Shown piece by piece: positions 7,284 to 35,465 of a stretch of 44,786 bases of DNA (position 1 is its first letter; every line of letters starts with the position of its first letter). This DNA is from a phage: the NCBI GenBank assembly GCA_012646845.1, contig GCA_012646845.1_4707.2. One strand, written 5' to 3'. The notes under the pieces are model-generated. The model worked only from the letters and a program-made list of their open reading frames with translations. It was not told where the DNA came from and did not search any database. The position numbers and the translations under genes are program-made.

Positions 7284-8585
7284 TTAACTAATATAAAGTT
7301 CAGGATCGTAAGGCGCTAACGATACACTGGCGTTATGCATTGCTTTCATCATAGTGTTCATGAAAACGTTGTTTACACCGGTGATCTCTGCCCCGATCGC
7401 GTCTGGGGTTGGAGCCATCGCGTTACCGCAACAGGTAGCACAGTATTCCAACGGACCCGCTTTACAGCGTTGAGGATCGCGTAACTTGATGGTTTGTCCT
7501 TCCAAGGAAGCGAATAATTCAGCATCAATAAGTTTAAGCGCTGCGCCGTCGATCATGTAACGGCCGACAAGTAGCTTATCTTTGATGTGGTCGCGGTTTA
7601 CCGTGAACAGAATATGTTCTTGGGTGCCGCAGTCGTCCATCGTGATTTTAAGGTTCTGTGTTGCACGTTGCGATTCTTTAGCCGTTTGTCCGGCTAAAGC
7701 GGTCAACGCACCACGTGAGAACGAACCAGCACGTGCACTGTTGTTGTACTCCGCCCAATGGTCGACGCGCATCCCTTCGGCCAGGCTGTGTGTGATAACG
7801 TTACGTTTACCAGGGTCAACGAAGTCGGCTTCAACCCCCATCATGATGTGCGTTTTCTTTCGAGTATTACCGAAACTCTTACCGGGGTTAATATAGAACC
7901 CTTCCGATTCATCGCCCTTAAAGGATTCCTTATCCATTTTGGTTAGCGTGGCTTCGAGTTTGATCAGTTCTTCAGGGGTGAACTTACCTTCCTCTTGTAA
8001 GCGTGCCAACTCTTTATCACGATAGGCAATAATATCATCATCGACCGTTAACGCTTTATCGCTCATTGAAGGCACAATTAAGCGGTTGATAGCGGTTAAT
8101 GCGCTGATATTGTTGGTGAATTTCTTCACTTCGCTTGCGTACAGCGGACCAATCGGACGCTCGTTAGGATCGGGTATTCCCTCTTCGGGATCATCTGCTA
8201 CGCGCGGCGCAATCAGCGATTCTAGTGTGCCGCTGGTTAACCGTCCTGCCTGATATTCAATCTGAATACCGAAAGCGTCATAAAGGACGTACATATTGAA
8301 CAACGCTTCACCGAAGGTTGTGGTGGTTGTGTTCTTAACCGACGGTAGATCGCCAGGCGCAAGCTCCAACGGATCCCAGAAATTCAACAAGGGTTTTGTT
8401 GGTTCTGTTTCCCATTGGTGTTCTTCACCGTCGATGGTAACCGTAACGATGTTACCTTGACGACGTAATTTAGGCTGATACTTCTCAGCGCCCCCTTCCG
8501 TAAAAGCAAATGCGTCGTTAATCCACTCAAGATAACGGTAATGCCCTTCACGCAACGCGTAAAGGAAATAATCACGAGGTGTCAT
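7284..8585 (-). CDS. hypothetical protein (433 aa) with C-terminal Cys cluster (CATCCGNA)
   Basis: ORF track; long uninterrupted frame. Confidence 0.7.
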   Translation of the reverse strand: MTPRDYFLYALREGHYRYLEWINDAFAFTEGGAEKYQPKLRRQGNIVTVTIDGEEHQWETEPTKPLLNFWDPLELAPGDLPSVKNTTTTTFGEALFNMYVLYDAFGIQIEYQAGRLTSGTLESLIAPRVADDPEEGIPDPNERPIGPLYASEVKKFTNNISALTAINRLIVPSMSDKALTVDDDIIAYRDKELARLQEEGKFTPEELIKLEATLTKMDKESFKGDESEGFYINPGKSFGNTRKKTHIMMGVEADFVDPGKRNVITHSLAEGMRVDHWAEYNNSARAGSFSRGALTALAGQTAKESQRATQNLKITMDDCGTQEHILFTVNRDHIKDKLLVGRYMIDGAALKLIDAELFASLEGQTIKLRDPQRCKAGPLEYCATCCGNAMAPTPDAIGAEITGVNNVFMNTMMKAMHNASVSLAPYDPELYIS

Positions 8586-12629: not shown

Positions 12630-12639
12630 TGCAAAGATA

Positions 12640-12687
12640 GCATAACCCTCCTCCTGGCCTGAACCAGGAGGAAGGGTGTTTTTATGC
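12640..12687. terminator. Bidirectional terminator hairpin between convergent genes
   Basis: GCATAA-CCCTCCTCCTGG-CCTGAA-CCAGGAGGAAGGGTG-TTTTTATGC; perfect extended inverted repeat. Confidence 0.65.
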
Positions 12688-31379: not shown

Positions 31380-31979
31380 TTACTTGGGTTCCAGTGTTGG
31401 TCCGAACAACCAGAATGTCAGACGCCGGTAAACCTGTTCGATGACTGCGGCTTCTGTTTGCTCTTCTAGTGCTTTCCCTTTCTTATGTTGTATTTCTGGC
31501 GGTATGTCGTCGTTGTAAACGTACCCTGCTGAGAAGTCCCACATCAACCGTTTACCGAAAGTAGGTAAAAACACCTCTTCGAATCGGAACGCTTTCGAAT
31601 TCCAATGAAGCAGCTGATCGGATTCAACATGTAAAGCTTTATTACGTTTGCTTGGCATGTTTCCGAAGTACTGAACGATAGCTGATTTCATAACCCGATC
31701 TGCGAAGTCTTTGGCTTCGGCCTCATCGAGGGGAGGCAGACGATGCGACAGATTCAGCTTGCGTTGTTCAACATCGATCTTACGCATCGCTTTAATCAAA
31801 TCACCCGGAACGATTTTACCCTTATGGCCTTCCTGTCGGTGTATGAAACACCCCTGGAATAATACGCAAAGTTCTTGAGGTGCGGTACTTTCCATTCGTC
31901 CGTAAGCAACGATCACCGATCGACGACGATCGATAACTTCGCGGATAAACCGCGGCTCAGTAATACTCACCACTGTCAT
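31380..31979 (-). CDS. hypothetical protein (199 aa)
   Basis: ORF track. Confidence 0.65.
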   Translation of the reverse strand: MTVVSITEPRFIREVIDRRRSVIVAYGRMESTAPQELCVLFQGCFIHRQEGHKGKIVPGDLIKAMRKIDVEQRKLNLSHRLPPLDEAEAKDFADRVMKSAIVQYFGNMPSKRNKALHVESDQLLHWNSKAFRFEEVFLPTFGKRLMWDFSAGYVYNDDIPPEIQHKKGKALEEQTEAAVIEQVYRRLTFWLFGPTLEPK

Positions 31980-32023
31980 TTAAAGCCCTCTTTATCTTTT
32001 TCCATTTCTCTTTACACAACCAC

Positions 32024-32749
32024 TTAAGACGTTGCCATCTTACTTTCCAGAGACTTCTTCGGTAAACCATGGATAACTCCTTCCGGGGTTAAGAACACAC
32101 AGTCTGGATTCTGCGTTCGTGAACGGTCTTCTGGACTGTTCAACGAGAACAACAACGCAGAAATACCTTTTGTCCGATTTAACGTTGCGACGATCACATC
32201 AAGCTGTCGTAGCGCATCCGATACGGTTCGATGAGGAACGATTCGCGACTGTTTGAAGCTGGCTAACCGCCAAGTCTCGAACAAACAACGTAGTTTAAAC
32301 ACGTCGGACGGAATAGCAGTAGATCCCTGTTCGATAACCTCAACACGATCAGCTTCAGGATAACCTACAGCAACCGCACTAAAGTGTCTTACCCCATTAT
32401 GAAAATCATCGATAGACGCTTCAGCGTATTTACATACCGTGCCAGAAACGACCATCACTTTTGCTAAACCGCGATAATTGATCGTCAATGGAATACGAAA
32501 TACGCGTAAAGCATGTTCTGGATTTAATGAGACGTCGTTAACCTTTGTTGCGATCAACTTACCACGCTCGTAACGTGCGGTGAATGGCAGCCCGTCATAA
32601 ACGGGATTAATCACAACGCCCCCTGGGGAGGCGTTAGCGTTAAGATGGGTGTTAAGCCAATCGGATACTTCCTGTCTACTAGTTACGATTAACATAAAAC
32701 GGTCCTCCATTTCTTTTCCTTTATTCATGACGAGTATCTTCCAAATCAT
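32024..32749 (-). CDS. hypothetical protein (241 aa)
   Basis: ORF track; start uncertain. Confidence 0.6.
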   Translation of the reverse strand: MIWKILVMNKGKEMEDRFMLIVTSRQEVSDWLNTHLNANASPGGVVINPVYDGLPFTARYERGKLIATKVNDVSLNPEHALRVFRIPLTINYRGLAKVMVVSGTVCKYAEASIDDFHNGVRHFSAVAVGYPEADRVEVIEQGSTAIPSDVFKLRCLFETWRLASFKQSRIVPHRTVSDALRQLDVIVATLNRTKGISALLFSLNSPEDRSRTQNPDCVFLTPEGVIHGLPKKSLESKMATS

Positions 32750-33371
32750 CCCTTTGTTTTGTAAATTCTGATTGCTTGCGATAAACCGTCCACGAATCGT
32801 GTATACCGTTAAAAGTCAAATGGCGCGCATTTAAGTTCACGGTGAATTCCTCTACAGAGGCAAAATCCGAACGAAGCATCAGATGAAAGTTATCGTCCCC
32901 GGTACAGCCTCCGTACCCTTCGCCCTGATAAATCAAAAGCTGGTGGGGTTGGATACGTGCGGCAACCAACGCAGCTTGTGGTTTGTCGTAAGGCGGCCAT
33001 GACAGTAGAATAACATCGTACTGTGAAAGATCGATGTTTGTGTAGTCGGCTTGCTGGATATCATCAATAAACGGATGGGGGTGTACTTTAATATCGTACG
33101 CGGTAACATCCTCTACACCGAGTTTACGTAGGACGTAAGTCAGGTAACCTGTCCCACAACCCAGGTCAGCGACACGTCTACCGTAACAGATGTTCGCCAA
33201 CTGGAGTGCTGTATCCATAGTTAACAACGACCATCCAACGCGTTGTGTGTATTCTTCACGTACATCCCATTGTTGACGGAACGTCATCGGTTCTATGATG
33301 TTAGCAAACTGCTGGTACGGCAACGGCATTTTGGTTTCGCCTTGCGTGAGTAAAGCAATAACATCGTTCAT
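32721..33371 (-). CDS. SAM-dependent methyltransferase (putative amino-methyltransferase)
   Basis: Start at ATG 33371 (AAGGAAAC RBS); motif I VADLGCGTGYL and motif IV-like LLSWPPYD. Confidence 0.7.
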   Translation of the reverse strand: MNDVIALLTQGETKMPLPYQQFANIIEPMTFRQQWDVREEYTQRVGWSLLTMDTALQLANICYGRRVADLGCGTGYLTYVLRKLGVEDVTAYDIKVHPHPFIDDIQQADYTNIDLSQYDVILLSWPPYDKPQAALVAARIQPHQLLIYQGEGYGGCTGDDNFHLMLRSDFASVEEFTVNLNARHLTFNGIHDSWTVYRKQSEFTKQRDDLEDTRHE

Positions 33372-33388
33372 TTTGTTTCCTTTTATCA

Positions 33389-33414
33389 GCATAAACCCTC
33401 CCATACCGGGAGGG
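33389..33414 (-). terminator. GCATAAA + perfect hairpin CCCTCCC-ATACC-GGGAGGG
   Basis: Perfect 7-bp GC stem directly upstream of methyltransferase RBS. Confidence 0.55.
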
Positions 33415-33419
33415 TACGA

Positions 33420-33545
33420 TTATTCATTTTCAATAACTTTAAGATTCGGTGTGCCGAGCGTTTTCTTCACCAACGCCTCAGCAACGCGTTTCTCGATGAA
33501 ATCGGTCGAATTGCTTCCGTTAATAACCAGTGTTTTGATGCTCAT
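33420..33545 (-). CDS. small ORF (41 aa, below track cutoff)
   Basis: Hand-translated MSIKTLVINGSNSTDFIEKRVAEALVKKTLGTPNLKVIENE; GAAGGA RBS. Confidence 0.3.
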   Translation of the reverse strand: MSIKTLVINGSNSTDFIEKRVAEALVKKTLGTPNLKVIENE

Positions 33546-34048
33546 GCTAAAATTCCTTCATTACCTAACAGTCGATTACGATGACGTCGGTACATTTGAC
33601 AAAGTGTTGTGATTTGATAAAGTTTGTTGTAACGTACCTCGATACGTTTTTGCACCTCTTTCCACGGAAGTTTATCGTATTGCCGATAACGATGGATTTC
33701 ATTCAACATCCGAAGACGCGTAGGATCGGTATTCTTTATTGTTACGAGCTTCACGCGCTGGTATCCGCGCTGCAACCCCGATTCCGAATACGTAATACCG
33801 AACTCATCCTGAATGATAGTAATGATCTCCCGCCATCGGCGCTTCTCACCGTCACGTAAATGGACAACCCGTGATAAGATATCGTTCCGATTACGATGAC
33901 TCAGTTTAATGTTAAGCATTGATGCGATCGCGCTAATTGCTCTCTGACTCCGTCCTAACGCATCACCGATCTCTTTCGATGTCATGACGCCAGCGTTTCG
34001 GCGTATGAATGCGATTTCGGTTGTTGTGTATTCTTTACCTGCTGCCAT
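33542..34048 (-). CDS. HTH-repeat protein, array member F
   Basis: Repeats YTTTEIAFIRRNAGVMTSKEIGDALGRSQRAI and WREIITIIQDEFGITYSESGLQRGYQR. Confidence 0.7.
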   Translation of the reverse strand: MAAGKEYTTTEIAFIRRNAGVMTSKEIGDALGRSQRAISAIASMLNIKLSHRNRNDILSRVVHLRDGEKRRWREIITIIQDEFGITYSESGLQRGYQRVKLVTIKNTDPTRLRMLNEIHRYRQYDKLPWKEVQKRIEVRYNKLYQITTLCQMYRRHRNRLLGNEGILA

Positions 34049-34512
34049 TTTTTACCACGTGTGTTATAATAGTAACGTTGACAAAGATGTGTGTGATGGT
34101 ACTCCCGTTTGAACTCGACATTGATAATGCGAGCAACTTCTCTCCATCTGACCCCTTCATGTCGCAGTGCTGTGATACGGTCTGAAATTTTGCACCATTC
34201 ATCTGGGTCGTATCGTCGCAGTTTATGGCGTCGTATTACGGAGGCGACGCTCGCTTTCGATCGGCCAAGATGGTTTGACAGTTGTTTAACCGAGTATCTG
34301 TGGATATTATCGCGAATATAGGAAAGCTCGTTGTTCGTATATGCCTCATTGGTTCTCGGCGAAGGGAACAATACGTATAACTTATTCTTAATCGCGCTTT
34401 CTGTGCGTTGAAACACGGTAACCAGTTCACTAATCGATGGTCTAGGTATTTGATACGCGTAATTCTCGAGGCGTGAGAGTTCCTCATCTGTCCAGCGGCG
34501 GTATTTGCGCAT
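33982..34512 (-). CDS. HTH-repeat protein, array member E
   Basis: Start at ATG 34512 (AAGGAG RBS); WTDEELSRL..., SVKQLSNHLGRSKASV, WREVARIINVEF modules. Confidence 0.7.
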   Translation of the reverse strand: MRKYRRWTDEELSRLENYAYQIPRPSISELVTVFQRTESAIKNKLYVLFPSPRTNEAYTNNELSYIRDNIHRYSVKQLSNHLGRSKASVASVIRRHKLRRYDPDEWCKISDRITALRHEGVRWREVARIINVEFKREYHHTHLCQRYYYNTRGKKWQQVKNTQQPKSHSYAETLAS

Positions 34513-34987
34513 GGGCAACTCCTTTGTTTTTCGTGTAATAGCACCAACGTTGATACAACGCATGTTTATTCGTTGTAATCCCAAATTTAACAACAACGTC
34601 GTATGTGATAATATTCCAATTTTGGGTGACGTTAAGTCGTTCCGCGATAAACGCGATAATCGCTTCCCGTTCTTGCTTGGTTAACGCACGACGAATTCCA
34701 TTAAGCCGTATAAACTGACGAACCGAGTCATACGAACGGTTTAAATCATACGCAATCTCCCTCAGCGATTTTTGTTTGATTACGGACTTGATGTATGCAC
34801 GTTCTTCTTCCGTATACGGTCGATGCTTCTGGCGCTGACGTATTCCCAAACGCCCCAGACACGCGTCGATGCTGGCGTATGTTCGTCCTGTCCGTTGTGC
34901 GATTTCATCAATCGTCAGCGGCGTGTTCAAGTACATGTGTGTAACATCTTTTAACTCATCGTTACGCCACGGCCGAGGTCGTCCCAT
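34484..34987 (-). CDS. HTH-repeat protein, array member D
   Basis: WRNDELKDV...IDEIAQRTGRTYASI; SLREIAYDLNRSYDSV; WNIITYDVVVKFGIT. Confidence 0.7.
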   Translation of the reverse strand: MGRPRPWRNDELKDVTHMYLNTPLTIDEIAQRTGRTYASIDACLGRLGIRQRQKHRPYTEEERAYIKSVIKQKSLREIAYDLNRSYDSVRQFIRLNGIRRALTKQEREAIIAFIAERLNVTQNWNIITYDVVVKFGITTNKHALYQRWCYYTKNKGVAHAQIPPLDR

Positions 34988-35465
34988 CTTGTATCCCTCT
35001 TTTCTTTCTATGATGCCACCAACGCTGATAAACAGCTTGCTTCGTCCGTGTTATGCCAAAATGCGCATTAACCCGTTCAGCAATGTGGTACCAATCCTGC
35101 GTTTCTTCTAACAATGCATCAACGAAGGCTATGAAGATCTTAGTATCATCCTCGCTTAACCGCTTGAAACCATGGCGGTGTGCTATTGTTCGAATACTGT
35201 TTGGATCTCTGTTTAAATCGCGTGCGAGCTGTTTGTAACTTTTGTGCTTACAGTGTAGTCTGATATATTCCAACTCATCGACGCTGAAACGTTTATGTGG
35301 TTTACGACGTTCGACATTTAAGTATATCAACCTCGATTTAATTGCACCGTACGTTGTTTCCATGATTTCTGCGATTTCACGGATTTTTAATTTCGGATGG
35401 CGGTAGTACAATTCCAGCAGCTGTTCATCATCCTTACGATTCCATCGTCGTACTGGGGGTTTCAC
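34962..35465 (-). CDS. HTH-repeat protein, array member C (GTG start)
   Basis: WNRKDDEQLLELY...IREIAEIMETTYGAI; SYKQLARDLNRDPNSI; WYHIAERVNAHFGIT. Confidence 0.7.
   Translation of the reverse strand: MKPPVRRWNRKDDEQLLELYYRHPKLKIREIAEIMETTYGAIKSRLIYLNVERRKPHKRFSVDELEYIRLHCKHKSYKQLARDLNRDPNSIRTIAHRHGFKRLSEDDTKIFIAFVDALLEETQDWYHIAERVNAHFGITRTKQAVYQRWWHHRKKRGIQDGTTSAVA

Follow-up and report, generated by a model that had tools for sequence, protein, structure and literature searches.

The window, by which we mean the whole stretch of 44,786 nucleotides of phage DNA analysed here (NCBI GenBank assembly GCA_012646845.1, contig GCA_012646845.1_4707.2), carries a gene for a small protein with the fold of class I S-adenosylmethionine (SAM)-dependent methyltransferases. 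The open reading frame (ORF) of 216 amino acids (aa) that a first-pass annotation, made from the letters alone, had placed at 32721-33371 is indeed present in both the ORF list and the sequence. It lies on the minus strand, with its ATG at 33371 and its end at 32721. In DNA sequence the region shares 92.3% identity with the Escherichia coli jumbo phage vB_EcoM_Goslar, a nucleus-forming chimallivirus. The phage is Goslar-like and nucleus-forming, in agreement with the earlier suggestion that it is virulent. The orthologue in Goslar is gp111 (HOV27_gp111, YP_009820796.1; 89.8% aa identity), which RefSeq annotates only as 'class I SAM-dependent methyltransferase'. It has the same position and orientation as the gene in the window, between homologues of gp110 and gp112-115, and the flanks are collinear. 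Within 31380-35465 the methyltransferase gene is the most diverged relative to Goslar, with 88.8% nucleotide identity and a synonymous divergence (dS) of 0.42, compared with 0.06-0.36 for its neighbours. Since the ratio of nonsynonymous to synonymous divergence (dN/dS) is 0.13, indicating purifying selection, and there are no stop codons, the gene is functional and not a relic. Judged by its sequence, the product appears to be an orphan viral class I SAM methyltransferase, remotely related to RsmC, TrmN6, PrmC and PrmA, but having a tryptophan variant of motif IV and a Glu/Cys/Asp set of its own. The features discussed below are collected in Table 1.

Table 1. Features of the methyltransferase gene and its immediate upstream region (positions are those of the window)
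Feature	Residues	Position	Strand	Basis or remark
Methyltransferase-fold coding sequence, 216 aa, stop codon included		32721..33371	minus	ORF list and sequence; orthologue of Goslar gp111
Possible N-terminal extension of the methyltransferase		33372..33404	minus	ATGs in frame at 33392 and 33404, for proteins of 223 and 227 aa
N-terminal cap / motif X region	38-58	33198..33260	minus	conservation table; hhalign to RsmC
Motif I, VADLGCGTGYL, SAM-binding glycine loop	67-77	33141..33173	minus	sequence, conservation
Motif II, VTAYD, beta2 ending in near-invariant D93	89-93	33093..33107	minus	conservation, model
SWPPYD, motif IV position after beta4	124-129	32985..33002	minus	sequence, model, conservation, hhalign
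YQGEGYGGCTGDDNF, end of beta5 and Gly-rich loop, family-specific	148-162	32886..32930	minus	conservation, model
GIHDSW, family-specific insertion between beta6 and beta7	189-194	32790..32807	minus	conservation, model
GC-rich hairpin ACCCUCCC-GGUAU-GGGAGGGU, then UUAUGCUGAU		33395..33415	minus	fold, stem search, kept in Goslar

The AlphaFold2 model (predicted local distance difference test score of 84) has the class I methyltransferase fold, that is, a seven-stranded sheet with alternating helices, starting with beta1-alphaA-beta2 and ending with the beta6-beta7 hairpin. At the sequence level, D69-L-G-C-G-T-G75 follows beta1, and D93 is found at the end of beta2, where class I methyltransferases have the acidic residue that binds the ribose. 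Motif I, as named in the first-pass annotation, is matched by Pfam models below their cut-off and is conserved in an alignment of 160 homologues; here G73 is present in 98%, G75 in 97% and D93 in 96% of the sequences. Further upstream, the region of motif X includes the invariant positions R38 (located in the N-terminal helix), Y41, G46, T51, E/D53 and L58, and it aligns by hhalign with the GVFS...D.GS segment of RsmC. Generic methyltransferase models of Pfam match over the SAM-binding half, all of them just below the cut-off. More generally, the matches in Pfam, NCBIfam and PADLOC are generic, sub-threshold and limited to this half; those in PADLOC are to mad2 (E 7.5e-7) and to a Type II methyltransferase model (E 6e-5). 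The earlier description of a small SAM-dependent methyltransferase thus holds for a protein of this fold, on the strength of both the motifs and the model. SAM binding appears to be retained, as motif X, motif I (D-x-G-x-G-x-G) and motif II (with D93) are all of the conventional kind.

The situation at motif IV is different from what had been proposed. SWPPYD had been read as a motif of the (D/N/S)PP(Y/F) type. Its location fits, as SWPPY comes directly after the strand formed by residues 120-124 (DSSP assignment of the model), some 50-57 residues downstream of motif I, and is paired by hhalign with SNPPF of RsmC and SNPPY of PrmC. Its composition does not: the residue directly before the two prolines is Trp (W125), the Ser being one position further upstream, and Trp holds the place of Asp/Asn/Ser in the window protein and throughout the 160 homologues. 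The family signature after beta4 is S-W-P-x-Y, with W found in 160/160, the first P in 157/160 (98%) and Y in 132/160 (83%) of the sequences, whereas the position after the first P is occupied by D in 50, P in 44 and C in 21 of the 160. Because this second position varies in the family, the 'PPY' of the window protein would seem to be partly accidental. As for the order of motifs, motif I does precede motif IV as had been noted; however, this is the default in nearly all class I methyltransferases and is not diagnostic of the gamma class.

Besides the SAM motifs, the 160 homologues share seven further invariant or near-invariant polar or aromatic residues. In the Gly-rich loop at the end of beta5, which follows the pattern Y-x-G-E-G-x-G-G-C-T-G-D-D-x-F, positions G150, E151, G155 and C156 are invariant, while D159/D160 and F162 are conserved. 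Just before the last strand there is a conserved G-I-H-D-x-W, with D192 in 99% and W194 in 89-91% of the sequences. The invariant E151, C156 and D192 are absent from the known relatives, as are R38, G150, G155, H191 and W194. The strands of the class I sheet are arranged in the order 3-2-1-4-5-7-6, which brings the beginning of beta7 next to the C-terminal ends of beta4 and beta5 on the substrate-binding edge. Given this topology and the DSSP assignment of the model, W125, E151, C156 and H191/D192/W194 most probably line one pocket. The acceptor would then bind along the sheet's C-terminal edge, its pocket being formed by W125/Y128, E151, C156 (together with D159/D160) and H191/D192/W194.

To place the family among methyltransferases of known specificity, we compared its profile by hhalign with 15 methyltransferases taken from the E. 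coli K-12 genome record; the comparator profiles consist of one to three E. coli sequences, so the resulting probabilities are rough. The highest scores were obtained for RsmC (N2-methylguanosine, m2G, in rRNA; score 51, 93%), PrmA (protein Lys; 47.7, 91%), YfiC/TrmN6 (N6-methyladenine, m6A, in tRNA; 47.1) and PrmC (protein Gln; 40). These were followed by RlmD, TrmA and RlmC (5-methyluridine, m5U, in RNA; 22-26), RsmB (5-methylcytosine, m5C, in RNA; 24), RsmD (rRNA m2G; 21), and RsmJ and RsmF (rRNA m2G and RNA m5C; 18). The four lowest scores belong to three DNA methylases, HsdM (m6A, gamma class; 15.4, 0.26%), Dcm (m5C; 14.9) and YhdJ (m6A, beta class; 12.4), and to the rRNA enzyme RlmJ (m6A; 13). 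In other words, the best homology is to the non-DNA methyltransferases RsmC/TrmN6/PrmC/PrmA. When the comparators were merged into small profiles, RsmC, YfiC and PrmC together reached 95.6% (E 1.3e-8), compared with 12% for the m5U trio and 10.7% for the m5C pair.

RsmC, YfiC and PrmC belong to the MTS type, and PF05175 (MTS) is also the only substrate-specific Pfam family matched by many members (30 of 147 at E<=1e-3). The window protein itself scores 20.2 bits, which is below the gathering threshold of 23 bits, whereas two homologues, P0048 (28.2) and P0117 (24.3), are above it. The MTS-type N-methyltransferases, namely RsmC/RlmG (m2G), TrmN6/YfiC (m6A) and PrmC/HemK (glutamine-N5), share with our protein the class I fold and the register of motifs X, I, II and III. 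However, they keep the catalytic Asn/Asp, for which the family has an invariant Trp, and their second Pro is not conserved in it. The family also has the additional invariant E-G-x-G-G-C-T-G-D-D loop and the G-I-H-D-x-W insertion, and lacks the N-terminal substrate-binding domain. The initial impression of a HemK/RsmC-like enzyme is therefore right as far as remote homology is concerned, but membership fails on the catalytic residue.

Two other groups of relatives deserve attention. PrmA, which methylates lysines and the N-terminus of ribosomal protein L11, is the second-best comparator, gives the weak top match in NCBIfam and is strongly acidic, like the window protein (isoelectric point 4.9, net charge -12; family median isoelectric point 5.25, with one invariant basic residue). 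In these charge properties it is more like PrmC and PrmA than like the panel's rRNA and DNA enzymes, which is weak evidence. Yet the alignment with PrmA covers only the SAM-binding half, and its N-terminal L11-binding domain is absent from our protein. The best single-sequence match in the PDB is METTL5. The Trm112-dependent enzymes METTL5, Mtq2 and archaeal Ta1320/PH1948 have NPPF/NPPY and need a Trm112 partner. Their alignment with the window protein ends just before motif IV, and no gene for a Trm112 partner is evident for it.

With the family profile, the best PDB match is instead 8z62, an archaeal m5U747 rRNA methyltransferase (E 2.6e-6, over the SAM half). It is tempting to speculate that the protein is a minimal carbon-methyltransferase, in which Cys156 would act as the nucleophile and E151 or D192 as the acid/base. 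The target would be C5 of a pyrimidine, whether in RNA, DNA or a nucleotide, and the mechanism would resemble that of TrmA/RumA (m5U) or RsmB (m5C). The invariant Cys that the family has past beta5, and its acidic residue where the last strand begins, recall the m5U RNA methyltransferases (TrmA, RlmC and RlmD; 8z62 and 2jjq). In hhalign alignments C156 falls opposite the catalytic Cys of the m5U and RNA-m5C enzymes, and D192 is comparably placed. However, the overall probability of the alignments that pair the cysteines is only 2-12%, and the distance of the invariant C156, in its G-G-C-T context, from the strand exceeds that in the known enzymes by 5 residues, GEGYG being treated as an insertion in the alignment. 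The alignment with 8z62 ends before beta5, and the motif IV forms DPPR/DAPC, the SCNP/TCS context and the TRAM/central domain are absent. The low probabilities of the m5U trio and the m5C pair, set against that of the MTS trio, speak in the same direction, as does the m5U Pfam family, which has no match among the 147 members. Membership in these groups, tried against E. coli TrmA, RlmC, RlmD, RsmB and RsmF, was accordingly rejected. We regard the Cys156 chemistry as improbable. The same low expectation applies to its more far-reaching version, a new catalytic type on an RsmC/HemK-like scaffold, in which a stacking Trp would replace Asp/Asn and Glu151, Cys156 and Asp192 would carry out Cys-dependent C-methylation of a pyrimidine. 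If true, it would mean an independent origin of C5-methyltransferase chemistry across jumbo phages, haloarchaeal viruses and possibly giant viruses.

Phage class I methyltransferases are most often DNA methylases, and the first-pass annotation had proposed an N6-adenine or N4-cytosine DNA methylase with a protective role. In its more general form, this explanation assumes an orphan enzyme, acting on N6-adenine or N4-cytosine or else non-specific, whose marking of phage DNA would protect it from restriction. It can draw on S-W-P-x-Y being at the position of motif IV with the Pro and Tyr kept, on the order of motifs and the Pro plus aromatic residue common to gamma-class DNA amino-methyltransferases (HsdM and M.TaqI type), and on the weak PADLOC matches given above. 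A further association comes from haloarchaeal viruses: in phiH1 (51,449-52,024, PhiH1_425) and PhiCh1 (PhiCh1p84) the homologue follows a gene for a YhdJ-like N4/N6 DNA methylase and overlaps its stop, so that the two are translationally coupled within the methylase region of the virus (PMC6210493). We have seen no other connection of the family with DNA methylation. On the other hand, where D/N/S would form the hydrogen bond to the target amino group, the family has its invariant Trp. Neither the window protein nor any of the 147 members matches the Pfam/NCBIfam models of DNA methylases (N6_Mtase, N6_N4_Mtase, MethyltransfD12 and DNA_methylase), HsdM, YhdJ and Dcm are among the four lowest comparators, and the HsdM alignment is misregistered. 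The protein consists of a single domain of 216 aa with no target-recognition domain, it is acidic with one invariant basic residue, and no specificity-subunit-like neighbour, restriction enzyme or DNA methylase recurs beside the gene at the 74 loci compared. In addition, the DNA of Goslar is cut by restriction enzymes (PMC6563267), and nucleus-forming chimalliviruses shield their DNA by the phage nucleus compartment and not by modification (PMC12908238). Consequently, the prior for a protective DNA methylase is lower in a Goslar-like phage. Taken together, these observations do not support the protective methylase, and we consider a DNA substrate unlikely. Should it nevertheless prove correct, the canonical D/N/S of motif IV would have to be dispensable. 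There is also a more general lesson in that motif I plus a 'PPY' string is insufficient for recognising a DNA methylase; the same mistake was made in the past with HemK and N6AMT-type enzymes.

The family to which the protein belongs is large and enriched in viruses. Residues 35-198 match PHROG 19090 (E 9.6e-19), labelled there as 'unknown function'. At E<=1e-3 an exhaustive profile search yielded 7,652 cluster representatives, and at E<=1e-30 it yielded 768; almost all have a length of 165-260 aa, the core homologues being 165-230 aa. By a pattern scan of viral contigs of 17-500 kb and of one genome per species, we confirmed 119 loci in 2.9 M viral contigs as opposed to 22 in 185,579 species genomes. 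Among cultured viruses, the gene is carried mainly by jumbo phages that infect Aeromonas, Salmonella, Klebsiella, Xanthomonas and Pseudomonas, and also by the haloarchaeal viruses PhiCh1, phiH1 and HGTV-1; fold relatives occur in Klosneuvirus-like giant viruses. No member carries a functional name: a second profile search of the database returned only 'hypothetical protein' or 'SAM-dependent methyltransferase', and a literature search covering Goslar gp111, the PhiCh1/phiH1 homologue and the PHROG 19090 family found no publication on any of them. Some members depart from the single-domain architecture. P0078 (610 aa) is a tandem duplication of the whole methyltransferase domain, and P0062 and P0092 (~400 aa) share an N-terminal domain of ~165 aa. 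Searches of Pfam, PHROG and the PDB gave no match to the N-terminal extension of P0062, P0092, P0135 or P0120.

Genomic context offers little guidance on the substrate. An all-against-all BLAST comparison of 945 neighbouring ORFs from 74 loci revealed no cluster common to more than three loci. A Pfam scan of 128 immediate neighbours found HNH in four of them and no recurrent restriction, methylase or biosynthetic partner. A weak connection with translation comes from HGTV-1, in which the homologue (gene 67; L117/L079 3387-4031) is located inside an array of 30 tRNAs, its annotated start overlapping tRNA-Leu, and from five metagenomic loci with a tRNA within 1 kb. Homologues inside or close beside viral tRNA genes include, besides HGTV-1, those at L052 (6495-6570), L014 (5740-5833), L056 (6843-6916) and L085 (7162-7234), and tRNA-Ile(UAU) is near the gene at five loci (L014, L027, L056, L057 and L062). 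A tRNA within 6 kb is found at 17 of 101 loci only, and where there are one or two tRNAs their distances look uniform; linkage to tRNA was therefore rejected as evidence and kept as a lead. A separate observation concerns L048, a viral contig of 482 kb, in which a suppressor-type tRNA with the anticodon CUA (7910-7982; ARAGORN, tRNA-Pyl) lies 1.5 kb from the homologue and hints at stop-codon recoding in that phage. The contexts in phiH1/PhiCh1 and in HGTV-1 point in different ways, and neither association is statistically secure.

Returning to the window, the genes around the methyltransferase all share its strand and are closely spaced. Downstream, a homologue of gp110 comes next and begins ~25 nucleotides past the methyltransferase stop. 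A Shine-Dalgarno-like AAGGAAA at 33376-33382 (minus strand) serves the start at 33371. Nonetheless, with three in-frame ATGs (33371, 33392 and 33404) the N-terminus is uncertain by 7-11 residues. The RefSeq start of the Goslar orthologue is equivalent to 33392, and homologues of 216, 223 and 227 aa are all present in databases. The residues added by the upstream ATGs are not conserved and our analysis is unaffected by the choice. Upstream, the window phage lacks the adjacent genes gp112 and gp113, which are present in Goslar. At a junction near 33520 (window 33420-33545) 838 bp of Goslar are missing. With them the larger part of gp112 is lost, and of gp113, a putative acetyltransferase, only the first few codons are left; a remnant ORF of 41 aa represents the start of gp113 fused to the end of gp112. 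Further on, four overlapping tandem paralogues of 167-204 aa, homologous to Goslar gp115-gp118, occupy 33542-35465 on the minus strand. They have weak matches to helix-turn-helix, sigma-70 region 4 and Myb-like domains, which suggests a set of related small DNA-binding proteins encoded immediately upstream of the methyltransferase.

Between the remnant ORF and the methyltransferase gene lies the hairpin listed in Table 1. It has a GC-rich stem of 8 bp (-16.2 kcal/mol, z = -2.2) and is conserved in Goslar, so the hairpin on which the first-pass annotation had based a transcription unit of its own for the methyltransferase is real. It may terminate transcription, and a separate unit is possible, but only three U residues follow it, and an intrinsic-terminator scan did not call it. 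A second hairpin, at 12649-12672 on the minus strand, is followed by the same GGTTATGCT string. Each of the two stretches (12639-12672 and 33388-33415, minus strand) consists of a GC-rich hairpin and, immediately after it, GG(G/T)TTATGCT. With at most one mismatch, GGTTTATGCT occurs 7 times as against 2.7 expected. The hairpin and the following string may constitute a recurring terminator/promoter module of this phage group; the string calls to mind the TATG motif that has been reported for late promoters in phiKZ-like phages.

What, then, does the protein do? Our analysis predicts a stand-alone class I SAM-dependent enzyme of the PHROG 19090 family, with a scaffold remotely related to that of small N-methyltransferases of the RsmC/TrmN6/PrmC/PrmA type and Trp replacing the catalytic Asp/Asn of (D/N)PP(Y/F), that is probably not a classical DNA amino-methylase. 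On balance, we lean slightly towards an acceptor other than DNA that different hosts have in common, most likely a base in tRNA or rRNA or a basic protein of the translation apparatus. Its methylation would then take place in the cytoplasm of the infected host cell. The first-pass annotation had mentioned, as an alternative, an RNA or protein methylase acting on host machinery; this fits the evidence better than a DNA methylase, though it is likewise only a candidate. If the possible substrates are roughly ranked, RNA comes first, though only as a tentative choice. Protein follows as an unlikely one, on a par with DNA. Somewhat less likely still are a small molecule or nucleotide and, equally, some other activity or no catalysis at all. 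The small-molecule alternative, to which we attach the same rather low expectation, supposes that the enzyme methylates a small cationic or nucleotide-like metabolite (a polyamine, nucleotide or signalling molecule), or that it transfers a group other than methyl from SAM.

Several points weigh against the preference for a translation-related acceptor. It depends on remote similarity dominated by the SAM-binding half, and on hhalign probabilities that are rough for the reason given above. The frequency of tRNAs within 6 kb of the gene is not significant without a background, and the window encodes no tRNA. Small size alone does not exclude a DNA substrate, since some DNA adenine methylases of phages have only ~170 aa and lack a separate recognition domain (PF05869/TIGR01712). 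The coupling to a DNA methylase gene in phiH1 and PhiCh1 has to be counted here as well. Goslar, too, encodes no tRNA (PMC6563267).

For the window phage itself, this is an ordinary accessory gene, for which a generic annotation already exists in Goslar. For the family, a translation-related role is directly testable in nucleus-forming phages, because an enzyme located in the cytoplasm cannot be a DNA methylase. If the acceptor is indeed an RNA or a protein of the translation apparatus, the family would represent a widespread and unstudied route by which large viruses retune host translation.

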